A DNA stretch of 59,857 nucleotides, taken from Schmidtea nova (Eukaryota). A program made the translations under genes and the position numbers. This document shows positions 39,231 to 59,250 of the stretch, piece after piece; the stretch's first letter is position 1; the number at the start of each line of letters is the position of its first letter. A model generated the notes under the pieces. The model had not been told where the DNA came from and ran no database searches. It saw nothing but the letters and a program-made list of their open reading frames with translations. The DNA lies in assembly GCA_044892505.1 (NCBI GenBank), contig CM097882.1:364068144-364128000 (forward strand), in the 5' to 3' direction.

Positions 39231-39359
39231 TGCTATAATTACAGAAAATTTTTTTTTTTTTTTTTTTTTTTTAATCGGTTTATATATCAGTTATTTTTGT
39301 TTATATAATAATTTTTGGGTATTTAACTGTACATATTATTTACATGATCACTTCTCTTG

Positions 39360-40742
39360 TTACGTCAACCATCCTTTTCTATCCGCTTTCTCGTTCCTTT
39401 CCATTTCTATATATAAGGTGTCTGCATATAATCGTTCCCATAGGTTTTCTTTCGTTATAAACATCGGTTCTCCCGCTGCTAATCCACATTCTGTGGTTGG
39501 TTTCTCGCTCGTACTCGCATGTTTCTCTGTCTCAAAGAATTTTTCTACTGGTTTTGTTACACTTCTGATTCTTACAATGACTCCTACTTTCAAGGGCCAT
39601 TCTACTAGGTCGTCGTATTCTCCTTTACATAGCGAGAAAAATATTTACACATGTGTTCCCCGTCCTCTTCCGTCTCCATTTGGGTATAGCTTCAATCTCA
39701 CTTTAGCTCCGTTTCTCCATAAATAAAATGGTGGGCTTATTACTGCTGTTTTCGTCATGTTTCGGGCCTCTGTTAATTTGTCTCTAAAATCTGTCACTTT
39801 CCACACATATGGTGCTATTGGTAGCTTTTCCTCGGTATCCTGTGTGAGTTTGTTGTACTGGATTTTCATTCCTTTAGCCAATTCTTCAATAGCTTTTATC
39901 TTTTTCTCCATTTTTTCTCGTGTTAGTTCGAATTGCTCTCTGGTTTCCAACAGTAGGCTTACCATTATCTTGTGTGACTCTATTTCTCTTTCTAATTTTT
40001 TGATCGTTTGTTCGGTTTCTTTTGTTGCTTCGTTTGTCATTTCCGCATGCTTTAGCAATGCTTCCTCCAGATGTTGTTTCATGGTTTTTTGCGTTCTTTT
40101 CTCCATACATCCCTGTTTATTATAAGGGCATTCCCTTGGTTTCTCCGTGCACACTTTCCAATGTTCTTGTAATTTTACTTCTACCGTTATCTCGCATTCG
40201 TTTGAACATATTCCTACATATTGTCTACATACTTTCTCCTCTTTTACATTCAGGTGTTCTTCTTCGATCTTTCTCCTCGTTTCTCGAGTTCCACAATATT
40301 CGCATAGACTTTCCTCTTCTTTACATTCATCTTTGTGCTGCTCTTTATTCTTTATAGTTATTTTTTGTTGGCATTTGTTACATTCAGTTCTCTTCTCTTC
40401 GCAGTTCTCCAGATGGTTCTCGAGATCGCGTATTTGTCCTTGCCATATACATGGTTGATTAATACATTCGGTTTTCGTGTTCATGATTTCTCTCTGAGTT
40501 GCTCTATCTGGTCTGGTTTCTTCGAATTTTATTTGTCCTTCTTTGCATTCTGGACATTCTGGTGGTCTCTTCATACTTAACTCGTGTATGCATTTGGTAC
40601 ATACTCTGCATCCGCATAGGGTTTGTCTTGGTTTCAATATTATGTTTTTACAATTTACACAAGTGAGTCTCTGACTCCATTTCCTGTTCTCGGCTCTCAA
40701 AATTTCGATTCTCCGCTCTTCGGCTTTTCCTTCTGTATTCAT
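39360..40742 (-). CDS. TRAF-family protein (RING, TRAF zinc fingers, coiled coil, MATH), 460 codons with one in-frame TAA at 39645-39647
   Basis: CVNC...CGCRVC RING; CNKC/CEYC/CPYNKQGC fingers; the MATH domain YVWKVTDF...SPPFY...LYPNGDGRGRGTHV*IFFSLCKGEYDDLVEWP continues in frame into ORF 39360-39593. Confidence 0.9.
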
Positions 40743-40833
40743 TCTACAAAGATATATACACTTGATTTGTTATCTATTTTTTGATTTTTCTTGTTTTTTG
40801 TTTTACATATTTACAATTTTTCGCTTTATTTAT

Positions 40834-41190
40834 CTACGGCTCGTTTGTTGAATCTGGTTCTGGGTCATTTTCTGATCTGTTTATTGCCCAATTTGTCCAT
40901 CCATCCTCTGCTTCTTCTGTCTCTCCCATTGTTAAACGGTCTATCTCTATTGCTTGTCTCTGATTTATGTCGCTCATCACTTGATTCTCTCTGGTAAGTT
41001 GCGTTATCAATCTCTGTTGCTCCTCGATTCTGTGGAGTTGTTCAAAACTATTATTATAACTTTCGGATAACAAATTCTGTTTCTCAATTAACTGATTTTG
41101 TAGTGAGTTGATTGTTCGTATTAACATGTCACACTGGGCTTTCCATCGCATAGCCATAGTAGTTTCTGCTATTTCTTCCTGTTCGTTCAT
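40834..41190 (-). CDS. 118-aa coiled-coil protein of unknown function
   Basis: ATG with TAG 3 nt upstream; Q/E/L heptads; AATAAA at 40825-40830. Confidence 0.65.
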   Translation of the reverse strand: MNEQEEIAETTMAMRWKAQCDMLIRTINSLQNQLIEKQNLLSESYNNSFEQLHRIEEQQRLITQLTRENQVMSDINQRQAIEIDRLTMGETEEAEDGWTNWAINRSENDPEPDSTNEP

Positions 41191-41315
41191 TTTCTAAATT
41201 ATATACATTAATCGTTTTCTCGATTTCTCTTTTTATTTTTTTATAATATCGATACCCATACTATTACGGTAATGCATTGTTATTTACACTATTATTTACA
41301 GTCATATCCCGCCTC

Positions 41316-43262
41316 CTATATCACCATCACTGTCTTTCCTTCGTACCGCTCTTCATCTTCTATTTGTCTCCAAAATTCTTTACCTTTCGTCCTCCTTTGA
41401 AATTCTTTCTGTACTTCTTCCGGTAATTCTATTCTGTAGTTCATAATTTTTATATCTGGCCAATGTGTTATTGGTTTCTTGTTGAGTACATCGTATATCC
41501 ATATTATTAATAACACTGTTATTACTGGAATAGTTGCTGCTAGTATTCCTAGGCCAATTAGTTCTCTAACTTGTTTGTTTACGTCCATCTTCGTAATTTC
41601 ACTCTGGTTAATCATTGGTCCGTATTGTCCCTTTAGTTTATTTAGTAGTTGTTCTCGTTCTTGTTGTTTTCTTTTAACTTCTTTAATTACTTCTTCCGGC
41701 GTCCATCTTGCGTAAGGGTCTATTACTACTTGTTCTGCGTCCATTTGTTTCGTTGTCTGACTTAATTCTTTAAATTCGAGTTTTCTCACTTTCCCTTTGG
41801 ACGTTCAGTTTACCGGTGTGTAGTACGTTTCGCATCTTTCCTGCTGATTTCCCAATATGTCCGTCTTTTCTACCGCACATATCTCGTATTCTCTATTAAA
41901 TTTCAGATTTTTGATACTCATTTCTTCTTTTCCTTTTACGGTTTCGCAGTATCGTGGCTGTCTTTCTTTTTGTTCCTGAACTACTGCCCAACATATTTCT
42001 AACGTTTTATTGTCTATTCTCCATAGTATAAGAGTTGCTGTAGTATTCTTTTCGGTTTTTATTTGTATTTCTTGGTTTTTCCGTTGTCCATTAGGTTTAA
42101 AGGTAGTGGTATACCTCGCTTTTCCTTTGTTCCGTTGTCTTCTACTTTTTCGCGTTGTCTTTCCAACTCTTGTTCTGGTGGGTGTTTTATATAATTTGCA
42201 TTCCAATTCATTTACTGTTATTTTGTCGCTTTTCCTAATCAGGCATATTTCGTACGTTTGATTGCTTTCTAATCCTTCTATCTGTATTGTGGTTGTTCCT
42301 CTGTTTGTTCGACATTGCGGCGGTGTATTCTGGTTTGTTTTCCTTTCCTGCTTCTTCCAGCATACGCCTTTGACGTCCGGTTCTATTCCGGTTAACTCTA
42401 ACATTATAGTTGTTCTCCGTTTGGTGCGTATATTTCTTCTTCTTCTTCTTATGAACTTTATTGCTTCCCCAGGTTGAAATGTTTTACAAATTGTCGTTCC
42501 TTTCTTGTGTCTTTCTTTTTCTAGTAAACATAGTTCATACGTCCTGTCTGCTTTTACTTTTGATATCTTGGTTACTTTATTTGTTTTCCTTTTCCGACTC
42601 GTCTTTATTTCGCTTATGCCAATTTCTTCGTTGTTTCTGGCCCAACACTTTGGGTTGGTATTTTGGGTGTCGTTCATCTCTGTTACTGCCATTGTGTCAA
42701 TGTCTATCCCTTCTTCTAACCGTTTTAACATTGTTAATATGAGTGCTAGACATAGTAATTCTGTTTGATAGGTCACTCTTTCGGTTTCATTTGTGGTTAC
42801 TCTTACTTCGGGCTTGTCTATGGTAATTCGTATAGTTGGCGTTGTTCGTCTGTCTATTGTCTGGGGTTTTTTGTTTTTTGTTCCTTGGGTCTCCGTTTTT
42901 CCACACTTTCCTACGACGTAGTCTCCTTTGGCTGACTGCTGTACTGTTATGGTTACTTTGGGTGTTAGGTAATTTGCACATGCAATTGTGTTGTGTGATC
43001 TTGGATTCTTTTGTTTTCTGATGGTGCATATTTTGTACCAAGTATCTAGCTCTAAGTCATCGATCTCTATGATTTCTTGTTCGTATTCTGAAATCCTGCA
43101 ATCCATTGGACTATTTTGTCCCGAGATTTTGTCCTTTTTCGACCAACATACTCGTTCGATTCCTTTTGCGTTTCTAATTTGTATTGTCGCTCTTTCTTCA
43201 CATATCATTCCTTGAGTTGGACTAATTAAGGTCATGACTATCGTTAGTAATAATAGTTCTGG
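41316..43262 (-). CDS. Predicted surface protein: signal peptide, 3-4 Cys-containing FN3-like repeats, coiled coil and TM (in-frame TGA at 41805-41807)
   Basis: PELLLLTIVMTLISPTQG signal-like segment; repeats of CW...C...I-x-I-x-x-L-x-x-(N/D)-x-x-YEIC...C-x-x-Y-x-TP; RTKR dibasic site; the frame continues into ORF 41316-41789 with TM LIGLGILAATIPVITVLLIIWIY. Confidence 0.7.
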
Positions 43263-46200
43263 TTAAAAGAATGGGTTTATTGTTTGTTTGTAGCCTGTTC
43301 TTTTTGCTTCGTTTTTATTTTTATAGTTGTTGTGTCTTTGTTTCCCAAATTCGTTTTTCTTATCATTTTTCTCTGTGTTCCTTCCTTTCTCTTCACTGTC
43401 CTCTTTATCTGATAACTCATGATCCTCTGGATTTTCTCGAGTACTATCGTCGTCGCTTCCTGTATTGTCGCCTCCCCTTTGGTCGTTGAAAATGTCGTCC
43501 TCGACATTAATTGCTTCTATCATTTTTTCATACGTTATGGTTGTGAGTATACTTGCTTCATATTCTTGTGTTTCTGCCTGCTTAGGTATTTCCTTATCGG
43601 TTAATTTACAATCTAGAATCTCTTTCTTGGCTTTTATCCAATTATTAAGGTACGTTTTCATTAGTTCTTTCCATTTGTCCGTACGTTCTGTTTCCTTTGG
43701 GTTGTTTGTGAATCGTAAATCTTTTCTTCTCATGAAGATGTCTATTATCTTTGGCCATTTGTTTATTATTAATGCACACTTTATATACAAATTTTTGCCT
43801 TGTTCCATGAACTCGTTGATCCGGAATGCTGGTTCATTGGTGTTTGGGTTCGTCCAATTGAGTATTGCTTCGGTTAGTTCAACGTTATGCATCATGGAAT
43901 GTACGCTAGCTTTTTTAACTGTCCTTGTAAGATATTCTATTTCCTCCTGATTTGTGATTGTTTTTATAAAATTTATCACCTCCCAATTGTGCGTTAACAA
44001 CGCTACGTCTAGTATTGAGCTGTCTTTGTTAGTTCTCCCCATGAGTCCTGCACCTGCTTCGTACAGTTCCTGTAACACTCGGGTTTTTGTGTTCGCTCTT
44101 GCTGCGAATATCATGAGGGTATCCCCCTTTTTATCTTTCATGTTCATGTCACTTCCGCAATCTTGCATCAACCGTGCAATTTCGACTACCCTCCTATCTT
44201 TTCCTGCTCGTAAGGCTCTATGTATTGGCAATACCCCATTCTTTGTTAATAAGAAAGTCACTGGCATTTCTCTTTTTATGATCATCATATCGTTTTCATT
44301 GTATGTTCCTTCCGCGTATGCGTGTATCTTTTCCACAATTGCTCCGAGTATCTCCAGTGTATGTTTAGAATTTTCGAATTCTGGTAATAGTTCTTTTGCT
44401 TTGTCCTGTATCGCATCCAACCTTTCTTGATATGGTACCTCTGCGCTGAAAAGTGGTGTAAATTTCCTTTTGCTTTCTCTTTCCTTTCGACATAGGAATT
44501 GTTTGCATTTCTCGGGGTGGTTTAGTATGTCTACTAGTTTGTCATACTCTTCCTCCACCGTTTTGTATTTATCTTGAAAATTGGATATATCTTTGTAAGT
44601 TATCGTCTTGGTTAGCGATTTTGCACACCATTCCCTAATTTTTCTGAATAATGCTTCTTTTTCACTTTCGAATTTACACTCCTCTTTGTTTTTGGAAATT
44701 ATGATATTTCTTCTGTCTAATAACGTTAACAGTGCTTTCTGGTCACAAACGAATTTTAATAGGAATTGTAATAACGCGTTTTGTCCTTCACTGTATACCT
44801 CGTTTATATTTAACACCCATGTATCATTTTCAGATCTTTTCCATTTTATTAGCTTGCGTATTGTTTTGCAGTTACCGATTTTTATTGCTTCCTTTATTAT
44901 ATCACCCTTGATCAGTTCGTCTATTTCCCAAGTGGCCTTCTCGATTATTTGTTTGAGCATTATCTGATTTGAGCTCCATATTACGTGATTCAAGACTGTT
45001 TTGTTTTCTCTATCGCGTTCCGTCCAGTTGAAATCGGCATTTATCAAAAGATCTATTATTGCTTTATCCGATTTGTAGATGGCTGCTACCATTAATGGTG
45101 TTTCTTGTTCGCTATTCCCAAAACCAAGGTGTTGGTTTGTTTCCTTTGCGATTTTTAGAAATTCTTTTACTCTCTCTACTTCTCCCCATTTTATGGCGTT
45201 ATGTAATGCTGGTTGTCCTCCTATGTCTTCTAGTGAAAGTATTTCTGGAATTTTTTCCATTAGTTCTGAAATGACTGGTTTTGTTGGTAGTCCCCTTGCG
45301 TAATCACTAATTATCGACTGAATATCCCTTAATATATCGTCTCTGACATGCCATCTTCCCATTATTTCTCTGGCTTTTAGTACGATTTCCTTGTTTCTTT
45401 TTTTCTGTTGCTTGTTTTCTGCTTCGATAATTTCATTGGTTGCTCTGAGCATATTCATTCTGGCTGTCTGGGATCTGGTTATTATTCGTTCTTCTGGCGC
45501 TGTGGTTATTGTTTTAGGTACTTTCTTACATCTGCATGTATTAACGTATATTGGTCGTATCAATGGTCGATTAACAAGTTTTACCTTCACATTGTTTTCC
45601 TTTTTGTATATAACTTCGTAAGGGCCTTTTCCTGGTCTTTGTAGTTTTTTAACGGTTCCTGGTATTATTTCTGGGGTTTCTATCATTACCCAATCTCCTG
45701 GTTTAAGATCATTTGTTTTAACGTTTTTCTTTTGATCGTGTAGGTCCTTGTAACTTTCTTGATAAAACTTTATGTTTAGTTCTGCTGTCTTCCATATCTC
45801 TTGCATTCGTTCTTTGAATTTGGTGACGTAATCATCTTCCTCCATATATTGAGACAAAGGTGGTTGATATTCAAGATCTATTGGCATATTGCATTCCCTT
45901 CCATACATTAATTGAAATGGACTCAATTTTGTTGCTGCGTGTATCGACATTCGGTATGCCATTAGACATAGCTTTATGTACTCATCCCAATCTGTTTGGT
46001 GTTTGCTTACATAATTGGATAACATTCGAATCAATGTGCCGTTAAATCTTTCCGTTTGTCCATTAGTTTGCGGATGATATGGTGACGTTCGTAATTTGGC
46101 TATTCTGAAGTAGTTTGTTACCTCGTCTAATATTTCGCTCATAAAATTTGTCCCTTGATCTGTCAGTATTTGTTTCGGGGTTCCATATCGGCAACATATT

Positions 46201-49200
46201 TCCTCTACTAAACTTCTTGCTACGATCTTTGCTTTTTGATCCGGCATCGCAAATGCCTCAGGGAATTTAGTCAAATAATCCGTTATTACCAATATATATT
46301 GATTCCCGTTTAAACTTTCTGGCAATGGTCCTATTACATCCATCGCAATGGTAGTCATTGGTTCCGCTGGTATTGGCATGGGTTTTAAGGGATTTTTCCA
46401 TTTCTTCCCACTATCCTTTCTTGTGGCACAAGTTAAACAGTTCTTTATCCATTCCTTTACGTCCTCGTTCATTGTTGGCCAATAATATTTTTGTCTCATG
46501 CGATCTAATGTTTTCTTATCGGACATATGTCCTCCCAACTTTCCGTCGTGGTATTGAGTTATTATCTCTTTTCGTCTATTGCCTGGCAGACACATTAATC
46601 GTTTTTCTCCATCTTGTATTAACAACCATCCTTTTTCTATTGTGTATCGATGTTGGTATTTCCTCATGTGTTCTTTTAACTCCGCATTGTCTTTGAATAC
46701 ATCCATATTTCGTGAGCTTAGGAATTCTATGATGGGTCTTAGTTCTTTATCCTCTTGCTGATCTTTCTTTAACTCACTGAAATCCAAATCCTCTGCTATC
46801 ACTATGCATATTCTTTGCACTTCTGGGTCTGTTAGTTCTGGAAACGTTAATCTTGACATGCAATCTGCGTTGGCATTCGCTTTTCCTGATTTGAATTTTA
46901 TATCTGGTGAATATTCTTGTAATTGCATCGCCCATCTCATTAACCTGCTGGATGTTTCCTTATGTTGTCCTAGCCATACAAGTGGTTGATGGTCTGTGGT
47001 TATGCATATAATGTGTCCCCATAATAGATATTTGAAGTGTTTTATTGCTAATATTATTGCCAATGCTTCTCTTTCCGTTACTGAATAATTCTTCTCGTGT
47101 TTCTTGAATGTTCTGCTATAATATCCGATTACTCGCTCTTTACCTTCGTCATCATATTGTCCTAATACTGCTCCTGCTGCATATCCACTTGCGTCGGTTG
47201 CGAGTAAAAATGGCTTTTTGAAATCCGGGTGAACCAATATTGGTGCAGTTATTAGCTTATCTCTCAATGTTTCAAAGGCTGTTTGTTGTTCGCTTCCCCA
47301 TATGAACGATACGTCTTTCTTTACTAGCTCCTGGATTGGTTTTGCAATTCCTGCGTAATCCTTTATGAACTTTCTATAGTAACCGCATAATCCGAGAAAT
47401 TCTTGGATCTGCGTTATAGTCTTTGGTATTGGACATTCTTTTACTTTATCAATGTTTCTGGGATCCGGTTCCTTTCCTTTTGCGGACACAATATGTCCTA
47501 AAAATGTCACTTTCTCTTTTGCCCAATCGCATTTCGATGGTTTGAGCTTGAGTTTCCATTGTCTCAATCTCACAAATACATCTCTGATATCTTGGATGTG
47601 TTGTTCAAATGTGCTTGAGTAGATTAGTAGGTCATCAATGTAAACCATGCATTGTTTTATGCCGTGGGTAACGAAATTCATACATCTTTGAAATGATGCT
47701 GGCGCATTGGTTAGTCCGAATGGCATTTTCCTAAACTGGTACAAGTCTCTTCCGATAGTGAAAGCAGTTTTCTCTTTGTCTTCCTCCTTCATTTTAATTT
47801 GCCAGTATCCGCTTTTCAAATCCAATGATGTAAAATATGCCGCTCCTTGTAATGTCAATAACATCTCGTTGATGTCCGGTAATGGGTATGTATCCCTTTT
47901 TGTAACTGCATTTAATCTCCGAAAATCAATACAAAATCGTTGTGTTCCGTCTTTCTTTTTCACCATTACGACTGGGAATTGCCATGGTGAGCAGCTGGGT
48001 TCAATTACTTCTGCGTCTAGCATTTTCTGTACCTCTGCTTCTGCTACTGATTTTTGCGCTTCAGCTAACTTGTATGGTCTTAACGCAATCGGCGTTTCGT
48101 CTGTTAGTGGAATCGTATGTAGTGTGACGTCGCATGTCCCTAGATCTAAATCGGATGCTGCGAATATGTCTTTATATTCTATCAGTAATCTTTCTAGCTG
48201 TTTCTTTTGATCCTCATTCAATAGTTGGCTATCAATGTTCCAAGTGGGTTCTTCCTCTTTTACTCCTTCTTTTATTGGTATTTCGATATCTATCATTGGA
48301 GTTAGTTTACCCAATCTTTCATTTTCATAAATTATTTTATCCTCTTCATCGAAATTTACTACATTTATTGGGATTTCTCCGTTGTCATTCGCACTCACTA
48401 ATCCCCTTGCCATTGGCAACGACTTTCTCTTTTCAAATCTTTTACTGGGTTCAAAGATCATGTCACCTTCTATTGTGGGATCTATTTTTACGAAGCATAT
48501 TTTCTCTCTCCGTGCTGGTACGATTATTTGTTTCGAACTTGTTACTTTTGCTTCTATTGCGCATATCTGTCCTGTCCTATCCTTTAATCTCATTGTTCCG
48601 AGATCAATAACTATTTCTTTAAATAATGCTGGCATCAGATCCGTGCCTATAATGCATGGTACGCTTAGTGCTGGTATTACTGCTACGAACGTTTCGATTT
48701 CTGTGTTTTGATGTTTTATATTCACCCACCATCTTCCTGCAACTTCTACTACTTCTTTACTGCATGCTATTACATGAACGTTGGTTCTCTCAATATCCCG
48801 TCTTTGTTCTTGTGGTATCCATTTTATATCTATTGCTGAGATATTTGCTCCTGTATCAATCATCGCTTCAATTTCCCTTCCGTTAATTTCGATTGTTGTA
48901 GTTAATACTGGACCGGTGTTTGATGACATTACTGCAATTGTATGTGAGTCTCCTTGCGGATCTACGCTTCTGCACCGTCTTGTTCTATAGTCTTCTGGTA
49001 TCATAGGATATATGTTTGTCATCGGCATCATTTGCATTGTATTTTGTCTCATCCCTGGTGTTGGTTCTTGGTACATGGTTGGTGGGGGTGCGTAACACTT
49101 CCACATTTCGGCTGGATTCTTTTCGACGTACTGTGGTACTTGATTTTTAAATACTTGACCTCCTTCGTTATCATCATCATCGTCGTCACTGGAATCGTCT

Positions 49201-52200
49201 TGGGTTCTGTACCCTTTCATTCTTTCCCATAGTCCTTTTCTCTCTTTCTTTAGTTGTTGTCTTGCTTGCTCGTTATTCATTATCTTTTTAAATTTTCGTC
49301 CCACTTCTTCATCGGTTCCTTTCATTTTTGCCAGTATTTTTAGGAGTCTTTTTATTCGGTGAATATCTTTTGAATGACCGTGTAATACCATTGTTTTAGC
49401 CAAAAATGGTAAGAATCCTACCACCAATTTCCAATTTACTTTCTTTTCTCGTTTATAGATGTCAAAACAGGCTAACATTTGCGTTATTATTACCCGTATT
49501 ATTTGTATAATTAGTATAACACCAAGTATACCTGCCATCATTTGTCCAAATATTAAAAATCTTCCCCACATCGCTTTCATCATGTTTTCCGTTGCCTTCT
49601 TAAAGTGGGCTGGTGACAATAATAATTCGTAATTTGGTCCACCTTGGTAATTTGTTCCTCCTGTTATTGTTACAATACTGGATAACACCGCTTCCCTTCT
49701 TGCTGGAAATAGTATGTTTTGTCTTGCTGCTTCTAAATCCTTTGCGCTATAGAATCCCATATTACTTACATCCACGTCTTTAAATTTTCGTCCTTTTGAT
49801 AGTTGCATCAATTCAAATTCCCTTGGTGCTGGTACCTCTGTTCTTGACGGAAACATAACCCAATTCCCGTCTGGTTTTTGGTATAGTGGTCCATATGCGT
49901 TGCTGCAATTGAAAGGGTTTGGTTCGAAGTTTACTGGATTTATGATTCTTGTCACTGGTTGCACATATCTTACTTTCCCTTTATATTCGATTTCTAGTTC
50001 GTTAGTACACTGACCTGGTTGTAGTTTTGTCATTGTCGCTACTTTCGCGTTTGTCTTTTTACATATGTATACGTACATGACCTCTCCGACTACCCTTCCA
50101 AAATGACCTTCTCTTAATGGTAATAGTGGCATTGCACTATCCGGGTTTGTGATTGCTACTGCTAGTTTTGTCTTTAATATTTCCCTATTTAATATACAAT
50201 CGTTATTTATTAAATCGTAATACACTTTTTGTAGTGACGCTTGTCCTCTATGGAATAGAAAATCCATTTTATTGTTCATGTAAAGGTGTAATTTAACATC
50301 GTTCGTGTGCACTTTGCGTTTCGCACTAGGTACTTCTTGTTTTGATACAAAAATGCCGGGGTAGTTGGTTTCCAACATGGCTACTCCGCATTTCAAGGCT
50401 GTTTTTCCTTTTACAAACCTCATTCCGATATCTGCATCTGAGGTAATTAGTACCGTTGGTGTATTTCTCATTTTAATTTGTTTTTCTTGTGTTCGGGTTT
50501 CAATCTTTTTCTCTCCCCGTACTGTGTCTTGAAGTATTTTTCCTCTTGCTGCCTCGTCTTCTTCTTCCTCTTGGAAGGTTTTCCCTTGTATCTCATCGAA
50601 TTCTGCTTCCTTTAGTAGTTGTAGTTGACATTCCTTTCCTCGTATCTGGTATGTTAGGGTTGACATACCCGTCTGACAAGTGTTTGACTCGATTTTGCAC
50701 ATTGGTAGGGTTTTCATTTCTCCCGTTGTTGGATCGAAGAATGTCTCGTACGTTTTTAATTCCACTGTATAAGTATCTATTACTACTAGGTTGGTTGCTG
50801 CTACTCCGAATATTGGATATGTTGCTCCTTGGCAATACCCTTCTCCTCCAGTAATAGCTCCTGCTACATAATATGTTTGTTGCAATATCACTCCCGTTTT
50901 TCCTCTTATCTTTACTCTATCTCTAGTCTCTACTTCTCCATGTTTGAATAATTTTTCACAGTCTTCTCCTTGCAGCATTACCGACTCTCTTTCCGTTCCT
51001 GGCATCACGATTGCTGAATAATGGCGGTGCCCACAATAAAAAGCAAATCTGGTTTTATAAACTTTGCATTCCCTGACCATTGTTCTTATCAGTTCCGCTT
51101 CCTGATATACGTGGTATAATTGCCTCTTTTTTAACGTTTTTAGTTCCGTTGGGGTTGCGTTTTTACATTGTTCTATCCCTCGTAATGAGTATTTTTCACC
51201 TAATGCCATTTGATCGCAATCGAATACTTCGAATGCTGTTGCGCCGTCAGTACTAATCATCCATATTAGCATCATCATAATGATGGAACTCAGGTTTAGT
51301 GTCGATTTTCCGTTTCCTGTTCCCGACTTTTCCTTTTCCAATTCTCCCAATATCTCTTCGAATTTCTTTTTCATATTTTCGGCTTGGTTTTTCTTTTGGT
51401 TTGTTTTTGTGAATATTTCCCATCCTCCTTTACTGATGATGTACGGTTCTATTTCCTTCTCTATAATTTTGGCTGTATTCTTTATATGTCTTTCAAGTGC
51501 TGTGGGTTTCAGTCGACCTCTACTCAGTGTCAGCAGATTGTAAATGGTGTATGCCATAGCTATTAAATATTTGTTATCCGTCTCTGCTCCTTCCGTTAAC
51601 TTCTTTATCAACATCGTGGTTCCTTGCCAATCTAGGTGGTTTGACCTTGTCTTTTCTTTTATTAGTTCTGGTAGGATTGGTGCGATGGCGCTATGCAGTG
51701 ATTTCGCCCTTTCGCTTATTTCGTTTATTCTCCACCATTTCTTTAATTCCGGATCGATTATTGCCAGTATTTCCATTAACATCTTTGATATCCATTCTTC
51801 GCCTTGGTATGTTTGTGTTGTTTCTTTTTCTTTCGTTTCGGCTATTTTATTTAGTTTCTTTAGACACAAATCCCATTGATTCCGTCTTTTTTCCTCTCTT
51901 GATTTTATAACTACATTTGCTGGATCCATCTTGGGTCTACCCCTAGGTCGTTTATCCATTGTCGTGCCCGTTTCTACTAATCTTGTTTCTCGTCCAGTTT
52001 TTTCTGTGACGTCTCTTGGTTCATTGGCTCTTTCTTCTAACCATCTTTCCATTTCTTGTGTGAATTGTACATTTTCTACATTTGCCCTCCTTGCTTCCTC
52101 TTCTGCTATTTCATTTACTTCTTCTATGATTATTTCTTGTTCGACTTCATCTTCGGTGTTGGTTACCGGTATTGCTGTTGGTAATTCTTGAATTCTTTCG

Positions 52201-53246
52201 AAAATATTATCATCTTTTTCTTTTGTTAGCTCTATTAGCTCCTCTAACATATCATCGCTATCTGTAAAAATTTCGTCTACATCGTATGGTTCTGGTGGTG
52301 TTCTTTCTCTTGTCTCTCTTGGTGTTGTTCTAGCTTGTTCTGAGCTTGTTCCTGGAGTCATTACCGATTTCATTGGGCTCGGCGTACTCATACTTCCTTT
52401 TGGTTTCTTTTCCTCTTTCAATTTCAATGGTTGACCTGCTATTGCTGCCACTGTCAATGTATTTGCGATATCTAATTGCGCTGGCGTTATTCCAATTTCC
52501 AAGCTGTTATCTAATGATCGTCCTTGGTGTTGTAAATGGAATGGTGGTTCATATCTCAATTTCTTTTTAATGTCTCGAACTTTCTCCGCTATTCCTACCC
52601 AAAACTCTTCCTTTTCTTGGTTCGGATATACTATTCTTAGGTGTACTTTCTGTGGCGATTCCTGCGAGAATTCCTGGTTTCTCCATTTTTTAATTACGTG
52701 ATCCAATTGTTCTGGACACCACTCGTTAACTCTTTTGTATTCGGCGATTGCTTTTGCTACTTTACGCAAGCATGTTATGTCTTCTCCATTAACTACGAAA
52801 AAATCTGCGAGACCTTTTACTAATTTTCTCTTTCCGTGCGCATTGGTTTTTAATATTTCGACAAATTCTTCCGTTTTTTGTTTCTCTCTTTCCAACCACA
52901 TGGTTGCCGTTTCTGGTCCGTCTAAATCTGCTGGCATGGCTTTTCTTGTTACCATACAGACTCTTCCGGTTTCCGGTTTGTGATCGTCTTCTATGCCTAT
53001 TTCATATTCTTCTTCGTATTCGCCTGCTTTTGGTTCCCAACATTTTCCTCGTTCGTTCCATTGTTTTTCTACAGGTGTTCGTAATCGTCTGTTGAGATTG
53101 AGTTCTTCTAATACATTTTCCCATTCTGGCCAAATCCGCCAATTTCGATAGATGTCTACTATTTGTTGTAATTTGTGCACAACTTCTTTTTGTCGTTCTC
53201 GTTCTCTTTTCTCATCTTTAGCAGTTTCTCTTGGTGTATCGTCCAT
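43263..53246 (-). CDS. pol: 3327-aa polyprotein: UBL, AT-hook, Bcl-2-like, envelope glycoprotein, protease, RT, RNase H, integrase, ankyrin repeats
   Basis: AMIDTGA (PR, about 48850); LDLKSGYWQI, FGLTNAPASFQR and YIDD (RT, YIDD at 47631-47642); TDAS/TDH/NADCMSR (RH); HHCC, MDVIGP, TDQG, TERFN and GPY (IN). Confidence 0.97.
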   Translation of the reverse strand: MDDTPRETAKDEKRERERQKEVVHKLQQIVDIYRNWRIWPEWENVLEELNLNRRLRTPVEKQWNERGKCWEPKAGEYEEEYEIGIEDDHKPETGRVCMVTRKAMPADLDGPETATMWLEREKQKTEEFVEILKTNAHGKRKLVKGLADFFVVNGEDITCLRKVAKAIAEYKRVNEWCPEQLDHVIKKWRNQEFSQESPQKVHLRIVYPNQEKEEFWVGIAEKVRDIKKKLRYEPPFHLQHQGRSLDNSLEIGITPAQLDIANTLTVAAIAGQPLKLKEEKKPKGSMSTPSPMKSVMTPGTSSEQARTTPRETRERTPPEPYDVDEIFTDSDDMLEELIELTKEKDDNIFERIQELPTAIPVTNTEDEVEQEIIIEEVNEIAEEEARRANVENVQFTQEMERWLEERANEPRDVTEKTGRETRLVETGTTMDKRPRGRPKMDPANVVIKSREEKRRNQWDLCLKKLNKIAETKEKETTQTYQGEEWISKMLMEILAIIDPELKKWWRINEISERAKSLHSAIAPILPELIKEKTRSNHLDWQGTTMLIKKLTEGAETDNKYLIAMAYTIYNLLTLSRGRLKPTALERHIKNTAKIIEKEIEPYIISKGGWEIFTKTNQKKNQAENMKKKFEEILGELEKEKSGTGNGKSTLNLSSIIMMMLIWMISTDGATAFEVFDCDQMALGEKYSLRGIEQCKNATPTELKTLKKRQLYHVYQEAELIRTMVRECKVYKTRFAFYCGHRHYSAIVMPGTERESVMLQGEDCEKLFKHGEVETRDRVKIRGKTGVILQQTYYVAGAITGGEGYCQGATYPIFGVAATNLVVIDTYTVELKTYETFFDPTTGEMKTLPMCKIESNTCQTGMSTLTYQIRGKECQLQLLKEAEFDEIQGKTFQEEEEDEAARGKILQDTVRGEKKIETRTQEKQIKMRNTPTVLITSDADIGMRFVKGKTALKCGVAMLETNYPGIFVSKQEVPSAKRKVHTNDVKLHLYMNNKMDFLFHRGQASLQKVYYDLINNDCILNREILKTKLAVAITNPDSAMPLLPLREGHFGRVVGEVMYVYICKKTNAKVATMTKLQPGQCTNELEIEYKGKVRYVQPVTRIINPVNFEPNPFNCSNAYGPLYQKPDGNWVMFPSRTEVPAPREFELMQLSKGRKFKDVDVSNMGFYSAKDLEAARQNILFPARREAVLSSIVTITGGTNYQGGPNYELLLSPAHFKKATENMMKAMWGRFLIFGQMMAGILGVILIIQIIRVIITQMLACFDIYKREKKVNWKLVVGFLPFLAKTMVLHGHSKDIHRIKRLLKILAKMKGTDEEVGRKFKKIMNNEQARQQLKKERKGLWERMKGYRTQDDSSDDDDDDNEGGQVFKNQVPQYVEKNPAEMWKCYAPPPTMYQEPTPGMRQNTMQMMPMTNIYPMIPEDYRTRRCRSVDPQGDSHTIAVMSSNTGPVLTTTIEINGREIEAMIDTGANISAIDIKWIPQEQRRDIERTNVHVIACSKEVVEVAGRWWVNIKHQNTEIETFVAVIPALSVPCIIGTDLMPALFKEIVIDLGTMRLKDRTGQICAIEAKVTSSKQIIVPARREKICFVKIDPTIEGDMIFEPSKRFEKRKSLPMARGLVSANDNGEIPINVVNFDEEDKIIYENERLGKLTPMIDIEIPIKEGVKEEEPTWNIDSQLLNEDQKKQLERLLIEYKDIFAASDLDLGTCDVTLHTIPLTDETPIALRPYKLAEAQKSVAEAEVQKMLDAEVIEPSCSPWQFPVVMVKKKDGTQRFCIDFRRLNAVTKRDTYPLPDINEMLLTLQGAAYFTSLDLKSGYWQIKMKEEDKEKTAFTIGRDLYQFRKMPFGLTNAPASFQRCMNFVTHGIKQCMVYIDDLLIYSSTFEQHIQDIRDVFVRLRQWKLKLKPSKCDWAKEKVTFLGHIVSAKGKEPDPRNIDKVKECPIPKTITQIQEFLGLCGYYRKFIKDYAGIAKPIQELVKKDVSFIWGSEQQTAFETLRDKLITAPILVHPDFKKPFLLATDASGYAAGAVLGQYDDEGKERVIGYYSRTFKKHEKNYSVTEREALAIILAIKHFKYLLWGHIICITTDHQPLVWLGQHKETSSRLMRWAMQLQEYSPDIKFKSGKANANADCMSRLTFPELTDPEVQRICIVIAEDLDFSELKKDQQEDKELRPIIEFLSSRNMDVFKDNAELKEHMRKYQHRYTIEKGWLLIQDGEKRLMCLPGNRRKEIITQYHDGKLGGHMSDKKTLDRMRQKYYWPTMNEDVKEWIKNCLTCATRKDSGKKWKNPLKPMPIPAEPMTTIAMDVIGPLPESLNGNQYILVITDYLTKFPEAFAMPDQKAKIVARSLVEEICCRYGTPKQILTDQGTNFMSEILDEVTNYFRIAKLRTSPYHPQTNGQTERFNGTLIRMLSNYVSKHQTDWDEYIKLCLMAYRMSIHAATKLSPFQLMYGRECNMPIDLEYQPPLSQYMEEDDYVTKFKERMQEIWKTAELNIKFYQESYKDLHDQKKNVKTNDLKPGDWVMIETPEIIPGTVKKLQRPGKGPYEVIYKKENNVKVKLVNRPLIRPIYVNTCRCKKVPKTITTAPEERIITRSQTARMNMLRATNEIIEAENKQQKKRNKEIVLKAREIMGRWHVRDDILRDIQSIISDYARGLPTKPVISELMEKIPEILSLEDIGGQPALHNAIKWGEVERVKEFLKIAKETNQHLGFGNSEQETPLMVAAIYKSDKAIIDLLINADFNWTERDRENKTVLNHVIWSSNQIMLKQIIEKATWEIDELIKGDIIKEAIKIGNCKTIRKLIKWKRSENDTWVLNINEVYSEGQNALLQFLLKFVCDQKALLTLLDRRNIIISKNKEECKFESEKEALFRKIREWCAKSLTKTITYKDISNFQDKYKTVEEEYDKLVDILNHPEKCKQFLCRKERESKRKFTPLFSAEVPYQERLDAIQDKAKELLPEFENSKHTLEILGAIVEKIHAYAEGTYNENDMMIIKREMPVTFLLTKNGVLPIHRALRAGKDRRVVEIARLMQDCGSDMNMKDKKGDTLMIFAARANTKTRVLQELYEAGAGLMGRTNKDSSILDVALLTHNWEVINFIKTITNQEEIEYLTRTVKKASVHSMMHNVELTEAILNWTNPNTNEPAFRINEFMEQGKNLYIKCALIINKWPKIIDIFMRRKDLRFTNNPKETERTDKWKELMKTYLNNWIKAKKEILDCKLTDKEIPKQAETQEYEASILTTITYEKMIEAINVEDDIFNDQRGGDNTGSDDDSTRENPEDHELSDKEDSEEKGRNTEKNDKKNEFGKQRHNNYKNKNEAKRTGYKQTINPFF
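43970..45225 (-). other. Two ankyrin-repeat clusters C-terminal to the integrase
   Basis: GQPALHNAIKWG, ETPLMVAA, NKTVLNHVI; GVLPIHRAL, DKKGDTLMIFAAR, DSSILDVAL. Confidence 0.88.
49380..51300 (-). other. env: Envelope domain: chuvirus/Monjiviricetes-like (class III, gB-like) glycoprotein
   Basis: Internal signal SSIIMMMLIWMISTDGATA; FDCD...YSL...C; CK...CGHRHYS; GYCQG; CG...ETNYPGIF; YMNNKMDF; GEVMYVYIC; CTNELEI...VQPVTRII; TM FGQMMAGILGVILIIQII. Confidence 0.85.
51400..51800 (-). other. Bcl-2-like domain
   Basis: BH2-like IEPYIISKGGWEIF (GGWEIF at 51411-51428) closing a helical segment of about 130 aa. Confidence 0.7.
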
Positions 53247-53264
53247 TCTGATAACGTGGATGGT

Positions 53265-56200
53265 TTAGTGATTATCCCATATCCCAATTTTATATAGCCG
53301 TCTTTCATCGTGATCCCATAATACATGTTCATTATATTTCATGATTATGTCATCTTCCCATTCTTCTTCTGGTTCTCTTTGTAATAGTGTCTCGTTGATG
53401 ACATTTACTAGTTCTTTTATGGTACAATCTGCTACCACTTCAATTTCCTTGGTATCCTCATTAGGCAGTTCCACTGAAATTTTTAGATCTGTTATTTTTC
53501 CTTGTCTAAACATTGCTTTTCCCATTTTGGCAATTACTTTTCCGTATGAGATTTGTGACCATCTCGTGTGACTTGTGTCACGTATGCACTCGATACATCG
53601 TTTCAACTTCTCGTATTCGCTTCTCATTAACTCCTTTCTATGTTTTTTGATTTGTGGGATGATTTGCTCTATCATGGAATTTAGATTTCCTCGTAAGATT
53701 CGTTTTTTCTCATATTCTAACCGTGGTTTTATCTTCTTCTCGAAACACGTATTCGCTTCCTTTGCTACTTCTTGTAGGTTCTCTTCTCTCTTATCATCGT
53801 ATATCGATAATGTTGTCACCTCTCCTGGCCATATGCCTGTTTCTATCAAATGCGTCCTTTTCTTCACTAGTCCATTCTGTGAATAGAGGAATTTGTTCTT
53901 ATACGAACTCCCTAATCTGTCTTCTACCCATTGATAAATATCCTCCGTGAGTGGAGTTTTGATCCAAATCCTTGGCAAACATGTTTTTATCTGTATTAAG
54001 ATTATATATTCATGGAGTGGTTCTTTTAATAATTTTCCTACGTATTGGCTTAGTGTTTCTACTTCCCGGCCTGGTAACCACTCTTTATAGTTCATTTGTA
54101 ATATCGCTCTCATGAATTTCCGATAGTGTTTCTTGTCAATGAATTCCTCATTGTATATTACTTCTAGCGCATTATCTAGTAATTTCTCGATCTCGTCCTC
54201 TTTTACTTGAATAGTTTCTGGTGTCTTTACTACTTCTATCTTTTTGTCTTCAATTTCCGGTTCGTTTAGCATATCTCCGGCTAGACTACTGACGTCACTA
54301 TCCTCTTCGTCATCTGAAAAATTCTTTGCCTGGCCTCTCAACATGTTAATGTGTTTTATTTGGTTGATTTCACTTGGTGTATCTTCCGTTGGTCTTGTTT
54401 CACTTTTAATAGCTTTTTGTGTTGATTCACTCTTGTCGTCTACTACCTCGACCTTTCTCATTTTTCGTTCTAACTCGTCTATTTCTCCCAGCCGTCTTCG
54501 TATCATTTTCCCTTTAAATATTCGACTGATTCGTGTTTCGTGACGCACTGGCGGTGGAATTCCTTCTGGTTCTATTTCTTTGATTACCATCACATTTCTT
54601 TTTGTCTCTACTACTCCCATGTTTTCCCATATATCCGTTAGTTTCAATTTTACTTCTGGTGCACCTTCTATTTTTAGGAATGCTTCTCTGGGCAGTTTCG
54701 TTACTCCTGGAGCCATTTCATTCACTTTGTTGAACAATATTCCTACTTCTTCTTTTATGTTATATTGGAATCGAAACACGTGCTTGTTTGGCAAAATTAC
54801 CATCATTCCTCTTTTCCCGAGTTTCCATTTCTCTTCTTGGTTCCCTTCTTTTTCTACCTCCTTCTCTGTTTCTTTCTCTGCTTCTTCGCTTCCTGGTACT
54901 ATTTCTTTTCGACTTTCGTTATTGGTTGGATTCAGGTTTGTTGGATTTATTTCTGGCACAGTCTCTTTCTCGTGGGTATTTGTTTGATTGGTTGCTCTCA
55001 TCATATTAATTCTTAGAGGTTGTCGTTCTCTTTCTTGCTGTTTTTGTTCCTCTTCTCTTTGTATTCTTGCCCATTCCTGAGCATGTCGTGCTTGACTTTC
55101 CCGATTCAATCGTTTGTTTTCGCTTTCTATTTTTCTCATCATGTTGATTTGTTGTTGACCTGTTTGCGGATTTCCTCTGTTTGTATTGTTTATCTGCTCC
55201 GTCAATCTTTGAACCTCTTGCATTAAATGTATTTCTTTAGGGGTGTTTTTATTTTGGTTATTATTATTATTATTTTGCTGGTTTCCGTATTCCGGTCGGT
55301 TTCCATTATTTGGCTGATTCCCATAATTCGGTTGGTTTCCACCAGTTGGTTGGTTTCCAATATTCTGCCAGTTTCCTCGTTGATTGCTTCTTTGTCCGCA
55401 CTTTCTTGATAGGTGTCCAGGTCGTCCACAATTAAAACAGGTTATTGTGTAACATCTGCTCTCTGAATGTCCTTTTACTCCACATTTTCCACAATTCAAG
55501 TTCTGATAACATTCTTGTTGCCAATGTCCCAATTTCCCACATGTTTTGCATTGTTTCGTTGGTCCTTGGGGGTTGTAATTGCTTTGATTTCCGAAATTTG
55601 ATACTTTATTCCCTTCATTCCTTCGTTGCGGTGGTGGTCGGTTTAATTGTTGTGAATTTGGAATGTGGTTATTCAGGTTCACTTCTTGTTCGTTTTGTGC
55701 TGTATCCATAGCTAAATAGATTCTACCATCATTTCCTATCATGTGTAGTTCAAATCTATTAGCTGTTTCTAGTGCTTGGTCAATAGTTTTACACCCTTGA
55801 CATCCAACTTGCGCTCTTATGTCGGGTCTTCTTAATCCTCCCACAAAGATAGCTGCCATTAACTCCTCATTTATTGGGCTGTCTTGATTAAAGATCAACT
55901 TTGCTAACTTTTTCAATTCGCTTGCATATACCGCATTCGATTCATTTATCTTTTGTTTCCTCATTGAGAATTCCGTGAATGCCTCATTCAATACTTTATT
56001 TATTCCGAAGGTTTGTTGGAAAAAGTCCTTTATCGCTGACCAACTTGTAGGTGGATTAATTCCATTTTTTGCTTCCAAATATAGATCTAATGCGCTATCT
56101 TTTAAATATAGCTGAATTCTGCTTACAGTTGTTTCTGGTTTCCACTTGCATACTTCCACGAATATGCCAAATTCCTTTAAGAAAGTTTCCAATTTACTCG

Positions 56201-56750
56201 CATCTCCATTAAACGGTTCTCCGGAAAATTTGTCTTTTATTTCTTCTCTGGGTTCGCTCATTTCGATTCCGCTGTCTGTAGTTATTTTACTTTCGTTTCC
56301 TCTTGTTTCTAGTTCACTGTTATGTTCGTCACTCGAATTTATGTCGATCTCAGTTTCCTTTGCTGATTCGTTGTCCGATGCTTTACTATCGTTATCGGTA
56401 TCGTCACTTTCTGTTTCTTGTTCTACTTCGTCTTCTATTTCTTCTATATAATCGTTGTTGGTTTTGTCGACTTCTATTTCACTTATTGGGTTTCTCTCGG
56501 GTTCTGCTTGATTTTCTTTGTTGCTTGAACTGTTGCTTGTTACTGATAATTTATCGTTTTCGATAATCGATTTCTGTATTATTATCTTCCTCGCTTTACT
56601 TCCTTTTAGGCCTTTCTGCTTATTATTCTTGGTAGCTTTATTCTTTTCTGCTGGTTTTATTACCACACTATTTGGGTCCTCTTTGTTGATTTTACTGTCG
56701 ACTTTCTTCTCTGCTGGTTTTATTATGACACTCTTTTCTCCTTTTCTCAA
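53265..56750 (-). CDS. gag: Extended Gag, 1161 aa: acidic N-terminus, capsid, 3 CCHC knuckles, Q/N-rich tract, two ubiquitin-like domains
   Basis: Capsid about 55740-56230 (PFNGD...YLKDSAL...QKINES...FVGGL); CKTCGKLGHWQQEC, CGKCGVKGHSESRC and CFNCGRPGHLSRKC (55398-55550). The listed start is TTG; the first ATG is M164 at 56261. Confidence 0.93.
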   Translation of the reverse strand: MRKGEKSVIIKPAEKKVDSKINKEDPNSVVIKPAEKNKATKNNKQKGLKGSKARKIIIQKSIIENDKLSVTSNSSSNKENQAEPERNPISEIEVDKTNNDYIEEIEDEVEQETESDDTDNDSKASDNESAKETEIDINSSDEHNSELETRGNESKITTDSGIEMSEPREEIKDKFSGEPFNGDASKLETFLKEFGIFVEVCKWKPETTVSRIQLYLKDSALDLYLEAKNGINPPTSWSAIKDFFQQTFGINKVLNEAFTEFSMRKQKINESNAVYASELKKLAKLIFNQDSPINEELMAAIFVGGLRRPDIRAQVGCQGCKTIDQALETANRFELHMIGNDGRIYLAMDTAQNEQEVNLNNHIPNSQQLNRPPPQRRNEGNKVSNFGNQSNYNPQGPTKQCKTCGKLGHWQQECYQNLNCGKCGVKGHSESRCYTITCFNCGRPGHLSRKCGQRSNQRGNWQNIGNQPTGGNQPNYGNQPNNGNRPEYGNQQNNNNNNQNKNTPKEIHLMQEVQRLTEQINNTNRGNPQTGQQQINMMRKIESENKRLNRESQARHAQEWARIQREEEQKQQERERQPLRINMMRATNQTNTHEKETVPEINPTNLNPTNNESRKEIVPGSEEAEKETEKEVEKEGNQEEKWKLGKRGMMVILPNKHVFRFQYNIKEEVGILFNKVNEMAPGVTKLPREAFLKIEGAPEVKLKLTDIWENMGVVETKRNVMVIKEIEPEGIPPPVRHETRISRIFKGKMIRRRLGEIDELERKMRKVEVVDDKSESTQKAIKSETRPTEDTPSEINQIKHINMLRGQAKNFSDDEEDSDVSSLAGDMLNEPEIEDKKIEVVKTPETIQVKEDEIEKLLDNALEVIYNEEFIDKKHYRKFMRAILQMNYKEWLPGREVETLSQYVGKLLKEPLHEYIILIQIKTCLPRIWIKTPLTEDIYQWVEDRLGSSYKNKFLYSQNGLVKKRTHLIETGIWPGEVTTLSIYDDKREENLQEVAKEANTCFEKKIKPRLEYEKKRILRGNLNSMIEQIIPQIKKHRKELMRSEYEKLKRCIECIRDTSHTRWSQISYGKVIAKMGKAMFRQGKITDLKISVELPNEDTKEIEVVADCTIKELVNVINETLLQREPEEEWEDDIIMKYNEHVLWDHDERRLYKIGIWDNH

Positions 56751-57299
56751 CGGGATTACTTTTGTATACTCAATTTTCCTGTCTTATCGTATTCCGATTC
56801 TTTTCTTCCTTGGTTGCTTGGTTTGGTTTGATTGATTTATCTAAAATACAAATGTCACTTCAACGATACTCTATTGTTATCGTTGCGCTTTTATTCCCTT
56901 TTTACGGGACTTCTCATTACTGGGTTTCTATTATTTTTCCCCATTCCCAGATTCCCCTTTATTTAAGTCTATTTAAATTATCTATATACTAGTCACAATT
57001 ATCTATTTAGTCATAACAATTATCTATCGATTATTAAAATACATCCATTATTTTTCCCGCGGTCTCCCAATTTATTTGTCGTTCGAACGCTCTAATTCCC
57101 TGAGTCATTTGACTCGATTATTATTTTATCATCTCTTTATCTTTCTCTCTGCTAGCCTCTAATTATTAATTCTGCCGGTCTTTCCGGTCAGCTCCTATTT
57201 CTCAATTCTATTTGCATGCATTATTTTAGGTCGCATAATCCGCTTTACTCGCATTTCTCAATTATTGGTGCGCACTATTCTCATTATCGTCGACGATCA

Positions 57300-57525
57300 C
57301 AACTCTGGGCCTATATTCCCTCTGTTGTTATTTCTTATCCCTTGCAACCCTGGGCCTATATTCCCTCCGTTGCTATCTTCCTTTAATTTTAAATAATTGC
57401 AACCCTGGGCCTATATTCCCTCCGTTGGTGCTCAACAACTGTAACCCTGGGCTTATATTCCCTCCGTTACTATCTTCCTTTAATGTTAACTAATTGCAAC
57501 CCTGGGCCTATATTCCCTCCGTTGC
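57300..57525. repeat. Leader array A: 5 copies of AACCCTGGGCCTATATTCCCTCCGTTG
   Basis: Copies near 57301, 57346, 57401, 57443 and 57498. Confidence 0.92.
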
Positions 57526-57571
57526 TATATATCCGGATATCCCTATTGGCTCCTTTGGCCTCTAATCAATA

Positions 57572-57737
57572 TCAATTATCTCAAATGGCTCTTATGGCCT
57601 CAAATTCATATCTCAACTATCTCAAATGGCTCTATTGGCCTTAAATTCATATCTCAATTATCTCAAATGGCTCTATTGGCCTTAAATTCATATTTCAATT
57701 ATCTCAAATGGCTCTATTGGCCTTAAATCATATCTCT
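57572..57737. repeat. Leader array B: 4 x 41-bp tandem repeat
   Basis: Unit TCAATTATCTCAAATGGCTCTATTGGCCTTAAATTCATATC; three copies carry CCAAT on the minus strand. Confidence 0.92.
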
Positions 57738-57780
57738 CAATAACGCCTAGCTAGGTCATTCAATATGGCTCTTTGGCCTC

Positions 57781-57963
57781 AACCCTTTGTTTCAAGGGAC
57801 AAACCGCTGATAACCCTTTGTTTCAAGGGACAAATTCTAATAACCCTTTGTTTCAAGGGACAACCAGCTGATAACCCTTTGTTTCAAGGGACAAATTCTA
57901 ATAACCCTTTGTTTCAAGGGACAACCCGCTGATAACCCTTTGTTTCAAGGGACAAATTCTAAT
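57781..57963. repeat. Leader array C: 6 hairpin units AACCCTTTGTTTCAAGGGACAA with alternating 8-9 nt linkers
   Basis: Copies at 57781, 57812, 57842, 57873, 57903 and 57934; CCCTT/AAGGG stem. Confidence 0.95.
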
Positions 57964-58440
57964 AAATTTTCCTTAACCGGTTAATCGTAATTCTTAACTT
58001 CGCTAGCGACTACAATTTCTCAGCTGAGTTCTCTCAATTTCATGCGAGCTGATTATGCACCTCTTATTTTTCTCTATAATTCCTCGATTCTTTGTTTTAT
58101 TACTAATTCTTTCGCTGATCAGTCATAATTCAATTTTTATTATTTTCTCTGCGCGCATCTTACCTCATCAGGGTTTTCCCTATTTCTCTCCCCAACCAAA
58201 ATATACAAAAAGATCGCGTTGGTCTACTAATGCGGGATGTGGTGATCAATCACATCACAAAAGCTTTCCAACATTTGCGATTGGCCCCTTTCTATATACC
58301 CCGAGTGGGTTGATCAACTGGTACCTCCCAATGGGTGCTTAACGGACTACTTGACAGTAGCTCAAAAATTAATTAACATTGTTGATTGCTCCCCTGACTT
58401 TGTCATTCGATACAATATATTAACACACTCTAAATATTTA

Positions 58441-58902
58441 TTATAAATAAACTACAATTTTATCAGTTACAGAGAAATTGCACATGGGGCACTCATCACA
58501 CTTATTCGCACAGTTTTTACAGAATCGAAAATGTCCGCATGGTAGAAACATTATTTGGATTTCACTGTCTTCGCATATGTAACATTGTTTATATTGTTTT
58601 GCTGCCTCGACCCCTTGCGACATCCATCGGTTATATGTTAGACTTAACTGCTGTTCTATATGTCGGCATCTGATATTCAACTCGGCATCCTCTAATCGTG
58701 CTTTGTACCATTTATATCGCGTATTTATATCGAGTTTATTTACTTTCTCTATGATTTTTATTAACTCAGTTGTTTCCTCCGTTTGTGTCGTAGGTTCCTC
58801 ATATTCGGATGCTCTTATTCGGGTTATTTTTTCGCAGACTGTCTCAAATGTATCGTTCTCGGTGTTGAAAAATTCCTCGATTTCTTTCAGTTTTTCCTCC
58901 AT
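58441..58902 (-). CDS. 153-aa protein with a C-terminal IAP/MDM2-type RING finger (no BIR domain seen)
   Basis: CYIC...IMFLPCGHFRFCKNCANKCDECPMC; the stop codon overlaps AATAAA (58437-58442). Confidence 0.88.
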   Translation of the reverse strand: MEEKLKEIEEFFNTENDTFETVCEKITRIRASEYEEPTTQTEETTELIKIIEKVNKLDINTRYKWYKARLEDAELNIRCRHIEQQLSLTYNRWMSQGVEAAKQYKQCYICEDSEIQIMFLPCGHFRFCKNCANKCDECPMCNFSVTDKIVVYL

Positions 58903-59232
58903 TTCCTAGATAATTTATTTAAACACTGTGTTAATATTATTGGAAAAGTAGTACTGTGTTTCGTTTTCGACAGTTTATAGCCTCCCCCCGTGTTTCGATA
59001 AATTGTCGTCCCGACCTGTTATTTATAAATGCATTTATTTAATTTATCTATTTCATTGTGTTGTTGTTTTTATTTACTCAGTTTGTTTAATTCTCAGTTT
59101 ATAACTATCTATTTCCACGTAGCTCGCTTTCGTCTCGATTACTTATTCGGTTACTATTTTTCTCACGAAATTCTGATTTTTAAAACTTTCTGTTGTCGTT
59201 GGGTTCACATTTTCCGCATAAAAACAAAGTTG

Positions 59233-59250
59233 ATCCCAGCTGAGCCCCCA
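59233..59250 (-). promoter_or_regulatory. Primer-binding site, tRNA-Pro type
   Basis: TGGGGGCTCAGCTGGGAT matches the vertebrate tRNA-Pro PBS TGGGGGCTCGTCCGGGAT at 15 of 18 positions; 6 nt from the LTR end. Confidence 0.8.

Follow-up and report, generated by a model that had tools for sequence, protein, structure and literature searches.

Three stop codons in the giant open reading frame of a Burro-like Gypsy element of Schmidtea nova are most likely copy-specific nonsense substitutions

The Burro/GYPSM1 elements of planarians exceed 30 kb in length, are bounded by long terminal repeats (LTRs) and possess a single open reading frame (ORF), termed ORF1, of 4,873 aa, or of 5,140 aa in the element from D. 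tigrina, according to excerpts of their published description (PMC6431247). In the same excerpts, gag and pol enclose an in-frame env, ankyrin and MATH/TRAF domains are carried as cargo, BCL2-like, Ubi/SUMO-like and dUTPase-like motifs as well as a BIR are reported on the basis of HHpred, and decayed copies with stop codons are mentioned for a related species (PMC6431247). Expansions of Burro and Gypsy elements in planarian genomes are noted in excerpts of a second study (PMC11410931). Here, a stretch of 59,857 nt of the Schmidtea nova genome (assembly GCA_044892505.1, contig CM097882.1, positions 364,068,144 to 364,128,000 of the forward strand; hereafter the window) was analysed, which contains on its minus strand a frame of more than 15 kb interrupted by three in-frame stop codons. 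With high confidence, this frame is regarded as ORF1 of a giant Gypsy LTR element resembling Burro, the three stops being specific to this one copy and most likely neutral nonsense substitutions, and neither Env nor Pol would be produced from the copy.

The host element of ORF1 is a Gypsy LTR element of 28,491 nt with a 4-nt target-site duplication and hundreds of relatives in the searched genome, which comprises 1.25 Gb and is AT-rich. Its likeness to the excerpted accounts of Burro extends to the element length of about 28.5 kb, the long LTRs, an ORF1 of about 5,140 codons and a high copy number, and also to a CCHC-type Gag, a mononegavirus-type env between gag and pol, the order protease, reverse transcriptase, RNase H and integrase, the ankyrin repeats, and TRAF/MATH and RING cargo (PMC6431247). 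This likeness to Burro1-4 is drawn from the published descriptions of these elements. All positions given below are those of the window, and the element with all of its features lies on the minus strand.

Translation of positions 56750 to 41316 gave 5,145 codons in one frame with three internal stops and a terminal stop, in agreement with the frame, the three stops and the flanking peptides that an earlier note on this DNA had described. The four segments between stops, of 1172, 3333, 485 and 162 aa, adjoin one another in the same frame, the length of which is far above chance. Stop 1 is a TAA at codon 1162 (53265-53267), stop 2 is a TAA at codon 4496 (43263-43265), directly before the second of two hydrophobic signal-like segments, and stop 3 is a TGA at codon 4982 (41805-41807), between the fourth of four C-terminal repeats and a stalk, while the true end of ORF1 is a TAG at 41316-41318. 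The element is free of N; the N runs of the window are located at 11808-11957 and 33034-33166. The complete polyprotein frame of about 5,140 codons occupies 41316-56783. As to its start, no special support was found for the TTG at 56750, with which the range given in the earlier note begins; the frame is open from 56783 onwards, and its first ATG lies at 56261.

For the comparison with other copies, DNA searches across the three stop junctions returned 352, 268 and 384 candidates; in each case the 40 best were scored, and 30 of these were examined. Excluding the own locus, no stop was present in 29 of 29 best matches at each junction, and the terminal stop was found in 30 of 30. In addition, 39 full sibling copies were taken from the same junction match lists, and are in this respect not independent of them; 37 of these could be aligned at each junction and two could not. 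In none of the 37 is any one of these codons a stop, and all 37 carry the terminal stop. Masked letters were considered as a source of this result and rejected, since the sibling codons at the three places are without N; in 36-37 of the 37 siblings they differ by one base from the codon of the window copy. A protein search of the genome further revealed open frames of 5,134-5,162 codons in 30 of 85 close siblings (counted by hand), which bears out the single polyprotein proposed earlier, and ORF1 is evidently the family's open frame in many copies. A sister family with 60-90% amino acid identity (about 63% in the C-terminal region, 87-90% around junction 1) is represented by eight matches with open frames of 5,649-5,736 codons (hand count) and is open at junction 1 in 4/4, at junction 2 in 7/7 and at junction 3 in 7/7 comparisons. 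Since both the siblings and the sister family are free of stops at the junctions, the uninterrupted polyprotein is the state of the family and the three stops belong to the window copy alone, in accordance with the last of three options considered in the earlier note, that of copy-specific nonsense changes. Across copies ORF1 is under purifying selection, with ratios of non-synonymous to synonymous polymorphism (pN/pS) of 0.03-0.31 in all 10 segments, the lowest value belonging to Env and the highest to the C-terminal fibronectin type III (FN3) region. The window copy carries 57 private substitutions in ORF1, which is free of frameshifts.

In order to assess how unusual three private stops are, the siblings were used as a reference. 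Five of the 39 copies were left out owing to low coverage or divergence above 5%, leaving 34 siblings, 31 of them with an LTR pair. The siblings carry 46 stops at 45 distinct codons; among the 34 well-covered ones, 6 are unbroken, 11 have stops without a frameshift and 4 have at least three stops. Stops become more numerous as the LTRs diverge (31 siblings; Spearman 0.51, p 0.003), as do frameshifts (0.63), with means for stops of 0.6, 1.2 and 2.0 in three LTR age classes. The full LTR pair of the window copy differs at 7 of 3,272 sites (0.21%), and within its age class (LTR divergence 0.2-0.6%) siblings average 2.0 stops, 3 of 10 having at least three. The near-identity of the LTRs, which had been taken as an argument against decay, does not therefore hold as one. 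From the private non-synonymous load, 2.0 stops are predicted for the window copy, and the probability of at least three is 0.33.

Several observations weigh against simple nonsense decay of this copy. At least three stops without any frameshift occur in only 1 of the 34 siblings. LTR divergence predicts 0.9 stops for the window copy, with a Poisson probability of 0.06 for at least three, and the siblings also have about 1.5 times as many stops as expected for their LTR age (36 over 31 siblings, versus about 24). Given this excess in siblings and window copy, not all stops are explained by simple post-insertion decay. The private substitutions of the window copy, 0.35-0.41%, likewise exceed half of the LTR divergence (0.11%), which speaks against a purely post-insertion origin; this excess is in part due to unsampled ancestors. 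Moreover, with the best 40 of 268-384 matches scored per junction, a small stop-bearing subfamily may exist among the poorer matches, and the stops of the window copy are those of the assembly consensus.

Some of the stops probably arise during copying or come from defective templates. Two independent insertions, with different flanks, their own 4-nt duplications and 74 differences in 21,784 nt, share a premature stop at codon 3116, as is expected if defective RNA was mobilised in trans, although the two may have converged. Among singleton changes, 810 of 1,200 are transitions, a share of two-thirds that resembles genuine mutations, and the rates per 1,000 are 2.1 for G>A, 2.0 for C>T, 1.1 for A>G and 1.4 for T>C. 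APOBEC- or ADAR-like hypermutation was rejected as a source of the stops, as this spectrum is strand-balanced and the sibling stops derive from eight classes of change.

The best surviving alternative, that the assembly is in error here in its base calls or consensus, is nevertheless improbable. It would fit with stops that are private to one locus, and no exact contig match across stop 1 was found in four public runs of one study, a weak point as these may stem from other individuals; among the runs listed as containing this DNA, none is from RNA. Long-read errors are mostly indels, and the window copy has 57 private substitutions in ORF1 yet no frameshift; its private changes are rich in transitions and synonymous in 44% of cases, versus 26% expected at random, and the sibling stops scale with LTR divergence. 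Less probable still is the explanation that the stops are tolerated and the copy is a functional variant with several ORFs, the downstream parts being reached from spliced or internally initiated RNAs, although four accessory ORFs have a splice-like AG 1-3 nt before their ATG and stop 2 is closely followed by a signal-like segment, and by an ATG after 10 codons. A replicating variant is expected to be found elsewhere, and no other insertion with any of the stops was seen among the 37 aligned siblings; with stop 3 the ectodomain would lose its membrane anchor, and the ATG after stop 2 falls inside the hydrophobic core. The splicing that had been invoked for tolerated stops is not needed as an explanation. 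The start-like codons that follow the stops at 7, 10 and 6 codons when GTG is included, or at 7, 10 and 21 codons with ATG alone, occur against a background of ATG/GTG within 7 codons for 23% and within 10 for 32% of codons (jointly about 3%, calculated by hand), and they are moot because the siblings lack the stops.

Programmed readthrough of the three stops, which would set the ratios of Gag to Env-Pol to FN3 proteins and for which the in-frame position of all three stops without a frameshift, the purifying selection on the sequence past each stop and the need of any single-ORF retroelement to make more Gag than Pol can be cited, can practically be dismissed, as the stops are present in 0/37 aligned siblings and 0/18 sister-family comparisons, the downstream selection signal stems from stop-free copies, two of the three stops are TAA, the least leaky stop, a fourth private stop interrupts a different gene (the TRAF-like ORF), and no CARYYA motif occurs at any of the three, with folding z values of 0.02, 0.08 and -0.08 for the next 100 nt (pseudoknots lie outside this fold test). 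The earlier note had rightly seen no classic readthrough context here, and the alignment of copies, which it had named in advance as the check on programmed readthrough, returned sense codons at all three places (29/29 and 37/37).

Under the preferred explanation by copy-specific nonsense substitutions, translation of the window copy would stop after Gag, and the copy would spread only with proteins supplied by other copies. The stops would date from the time since insertion or from the final rounds of copying, the defective RNA being carried by the proteins of other copies; we infer the latter origin because one stop is common to two independent insertions. In active members of the family, an uninterrupted frame encodes the whole Gag-Env-Pol-ankyrin-FN3 precursor, which would be processed post-translationally by the element's own protease and, at two signal-like segments within it, probably also by signal peptidase of the host.

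Regarding the domains of the polyprotein, Gag (55398-56108) is represented by a Retrotrans_gag match below the cut-off (E 1.3e-3) and by CCHC knuckles (E 2.8e-7; both Pfam). Env (49452-51293) comprises a hydrophobic signal-like segment (codons 1820-1833), a match to the Monjiviricetes-type fusion glycoprotein PF24664 with E 3e-69, and a transmembrane helix (codons 2396-2432). Pol (46071-48899) comprises aspartyl protease, reverse transcriptase, RNase H and integrase in Gypsy order according to Pfam, and is followed by ankyrin repeats, the best-scoring stretch of which lies at 44967-45206 with more stretches down to about 43900. In Pfam, Bcl-2 was matched where it was expected, with an E of only 0.12, and ubiquitin-like, dUTPase and BIR domains gave no Pfam match in the segments scanned. 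For the ubiquitin-like domain that the earlier note had placed across stop 1, neither Pfam nor a sequence search of the PDB returned a match; a Ubi/SUMO-like motif has been reported in the corresponding part of Burro ORF1 in the excerpted account (PMC6431247).

The C-terminal part of ORF1 begins with the second signal-like segment (43221-43259, codons 4498-4510), identified by its hydrophobicity immediately after stop 2, where a signal peptide had already been suspected. It is followed by four homologous beta-rich repeats with a predicted FN3 fold (42951-43205, 42465-42719, 42171-42419 and 41808-42083), in which Trp, Tyr and Cys are invariant, and by a predicted C-terminal transmembrane helix (41481-41570, codons 5061-5090) with a short tail. 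The model of repeat 1 matched an FN3 domain at best with Z 7.3 and a root-mean-square deviation of 2.4 over 71 aligned residues, with FN3 accounting for almost all of the 50 best rows; this repeat was the sole usable part of an otherwise poor single-sequence model of 585 aa (predicted local distance difference test, pLDDT, 40). The model of repeat 3 (pLDDT 81.5, six strands) gave a best Foldseek E of 0.015, with template modelling scores of 0.61-0.63 to FN3 domains and monobodies, while Pfam fn3 reached only E 0.075. The repeats are thus likely FN3-like as judged from these models, every score being below a firm threshold, and the earlier remark that this is an FN3 region is borne out to that extent. 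No homologues of the FN3 region were found among the longer proteins searched, one weak match (E 4e-4) was obtained among representatives, to a protein that combines Ig with fn3 domains, and a viral structure library contained no match at E 0.001. Between the repeats lie an extra hydrophobic stretch (codons 4664-4676) as well as a basic cluster of furin-like type (codons 4768-4775); the former could complicate the membrane topology proposed below. The papers listed by a literature search included none that treats FN3 in elements of this kind.

At the opposite end of ORF1, 174 open codons (56262-56783) precede the first ATG. No ATG is present in this N-terminal extension in any of 33 aligned siblings, pN/pS is 0.24 over codons 1-163, and length variants remain in frame (63 nt). 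ORF1 therefore likely starts upstream of the first ATG, by a non-AUG start or a spliced leader. For the intact family as a whole, the evidence is somewhat in favour of a precursor of about 5,140 residues that is threaded twice through the membrane, includes a second, FN3-like surface protein and starts upstream of the first ATG. In such a layout Gag would be followed by a signal, Env and an anchor, then by Pol and the ankyrin repeats in the cytosol, and finally by the second signal, the four FN3-like repeats and the second anchor. If this is true, it would be a retroelement with a second surface protein behind integrase, which might serve as an adhesin, as the receptor-binding partner of Env or as a cytokine-receptor-like decoy.

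Outside ORF1, the 3′ LTR (34038-37309, 3,272 nt, TG...CA) adjoins the 4-nt target-site duplication. The last 601 nt of the 5′ LTR (59257-59857) lie in the window and are identical to the 3′ LTR; the full 5′ LTR extends to the window-equivalent position 62528, the LTR sequence beyond the window having been taken from the genome. Among 27 sibling LTR pairs examined, a 4-nt duplication was found in 18 and one of 6 nt in a single case, and in 8 the duplication was not located. A few bases past the 5′ LTR, a candidate primer-binding site is located at 59237-59252, presumably of a kind resembling the tRNA-Pro type. The LTR contains two ORFs without Pfam match (35510-36016, 168 codons; 34597-35193, 198 codons). 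Upstream of ORF1, an accessory ORF with a C3HC4 RING finger (58441-58905; PF13920, E 5.6e-12) and, within the 5′ untranslated region, arrays of tandem repeats (57300-57965) are present. Downstream, a TRAF-like accessory ORF with RING-like, zf-TRAF and MATH domains according to Pfam (39360-40769) carries the fourth private stop at 39645-39647, absent from all of 34 siblings, and its family end at 39360-39362 is common to 33/34. The end stops of the other accessory ORFs at 40834-41193, 38169-39290 and 37514-38107 are common to 33/34, 33/33 and 33/33 siblings, respectively. An AG precedes the ATG by 1-3 nt in four accessory ORFs (58902, 41190, 40742 and 39230), and these acceptor-like dinucleotides suggest, as far as sequence can indicate it, that the accessory ORFs may be expressed via splicing. 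Elsewhere in the window, an ORF for a hAT-family transposase with a BED finger (8602-10464, minus strand) and long inverted repeats resembling miniature inverted-repeat transposable elements (30060-30572, with perfect arms of 142 nt, and 33461-33657, a near-palindrome) were observed.

Taken by themselves, the three in-frame stops are ordinary damage to one copy, and a giant single ORF has already been published for Burro, as excerpts of that work state (PMC6431247). The locus nevertheless calls for caution, as near-identical LTRs are no guarantee of an intact ORF when this ORF comprises 15 kb. What remains of value is the conserved FN3-like membrane module that closes the polyprotein, together with the conserved N-terminal extension without ATG, both of which are absent from the excerpted account of Burro, and the location of TRAF/MATH, which here forms a separate ORF downstream of ORF1, differs from that account, in which it lies inside ORF1 or, in D. 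tigrina, upstream (PMC6431247). A precursor free of stops and frameshifts also raises the question of how Gag would be made in excess over Pol. In gammaretroviruses of the murine leukaemia virus type, a stop between gag and pol is read through; this stop, together with the signal downstream of it, is a fixed feature of that family. The window copy resembles this arrangement in having an in-frame stop between gag and the downstream genes, and differs from it in that the stop is missing from all siblings tested and no signal was seen. The twice-threaded precursor proposed for the intact family may instead be likened to a flavivirus polyprotein. A further parallel, by description, is PSCNV, the secretory cell nidovirus of planarians, an RNA nidovirus with one ORF of 13,556 aa containing ankyrin repeats and fibronectin type II, not type III, modules in excerpts of its description (PMC6211748), which shares with the present family its association with planarians and a single giant ORF combining ankyrin and fibronectin-type modules (PMC6211748).

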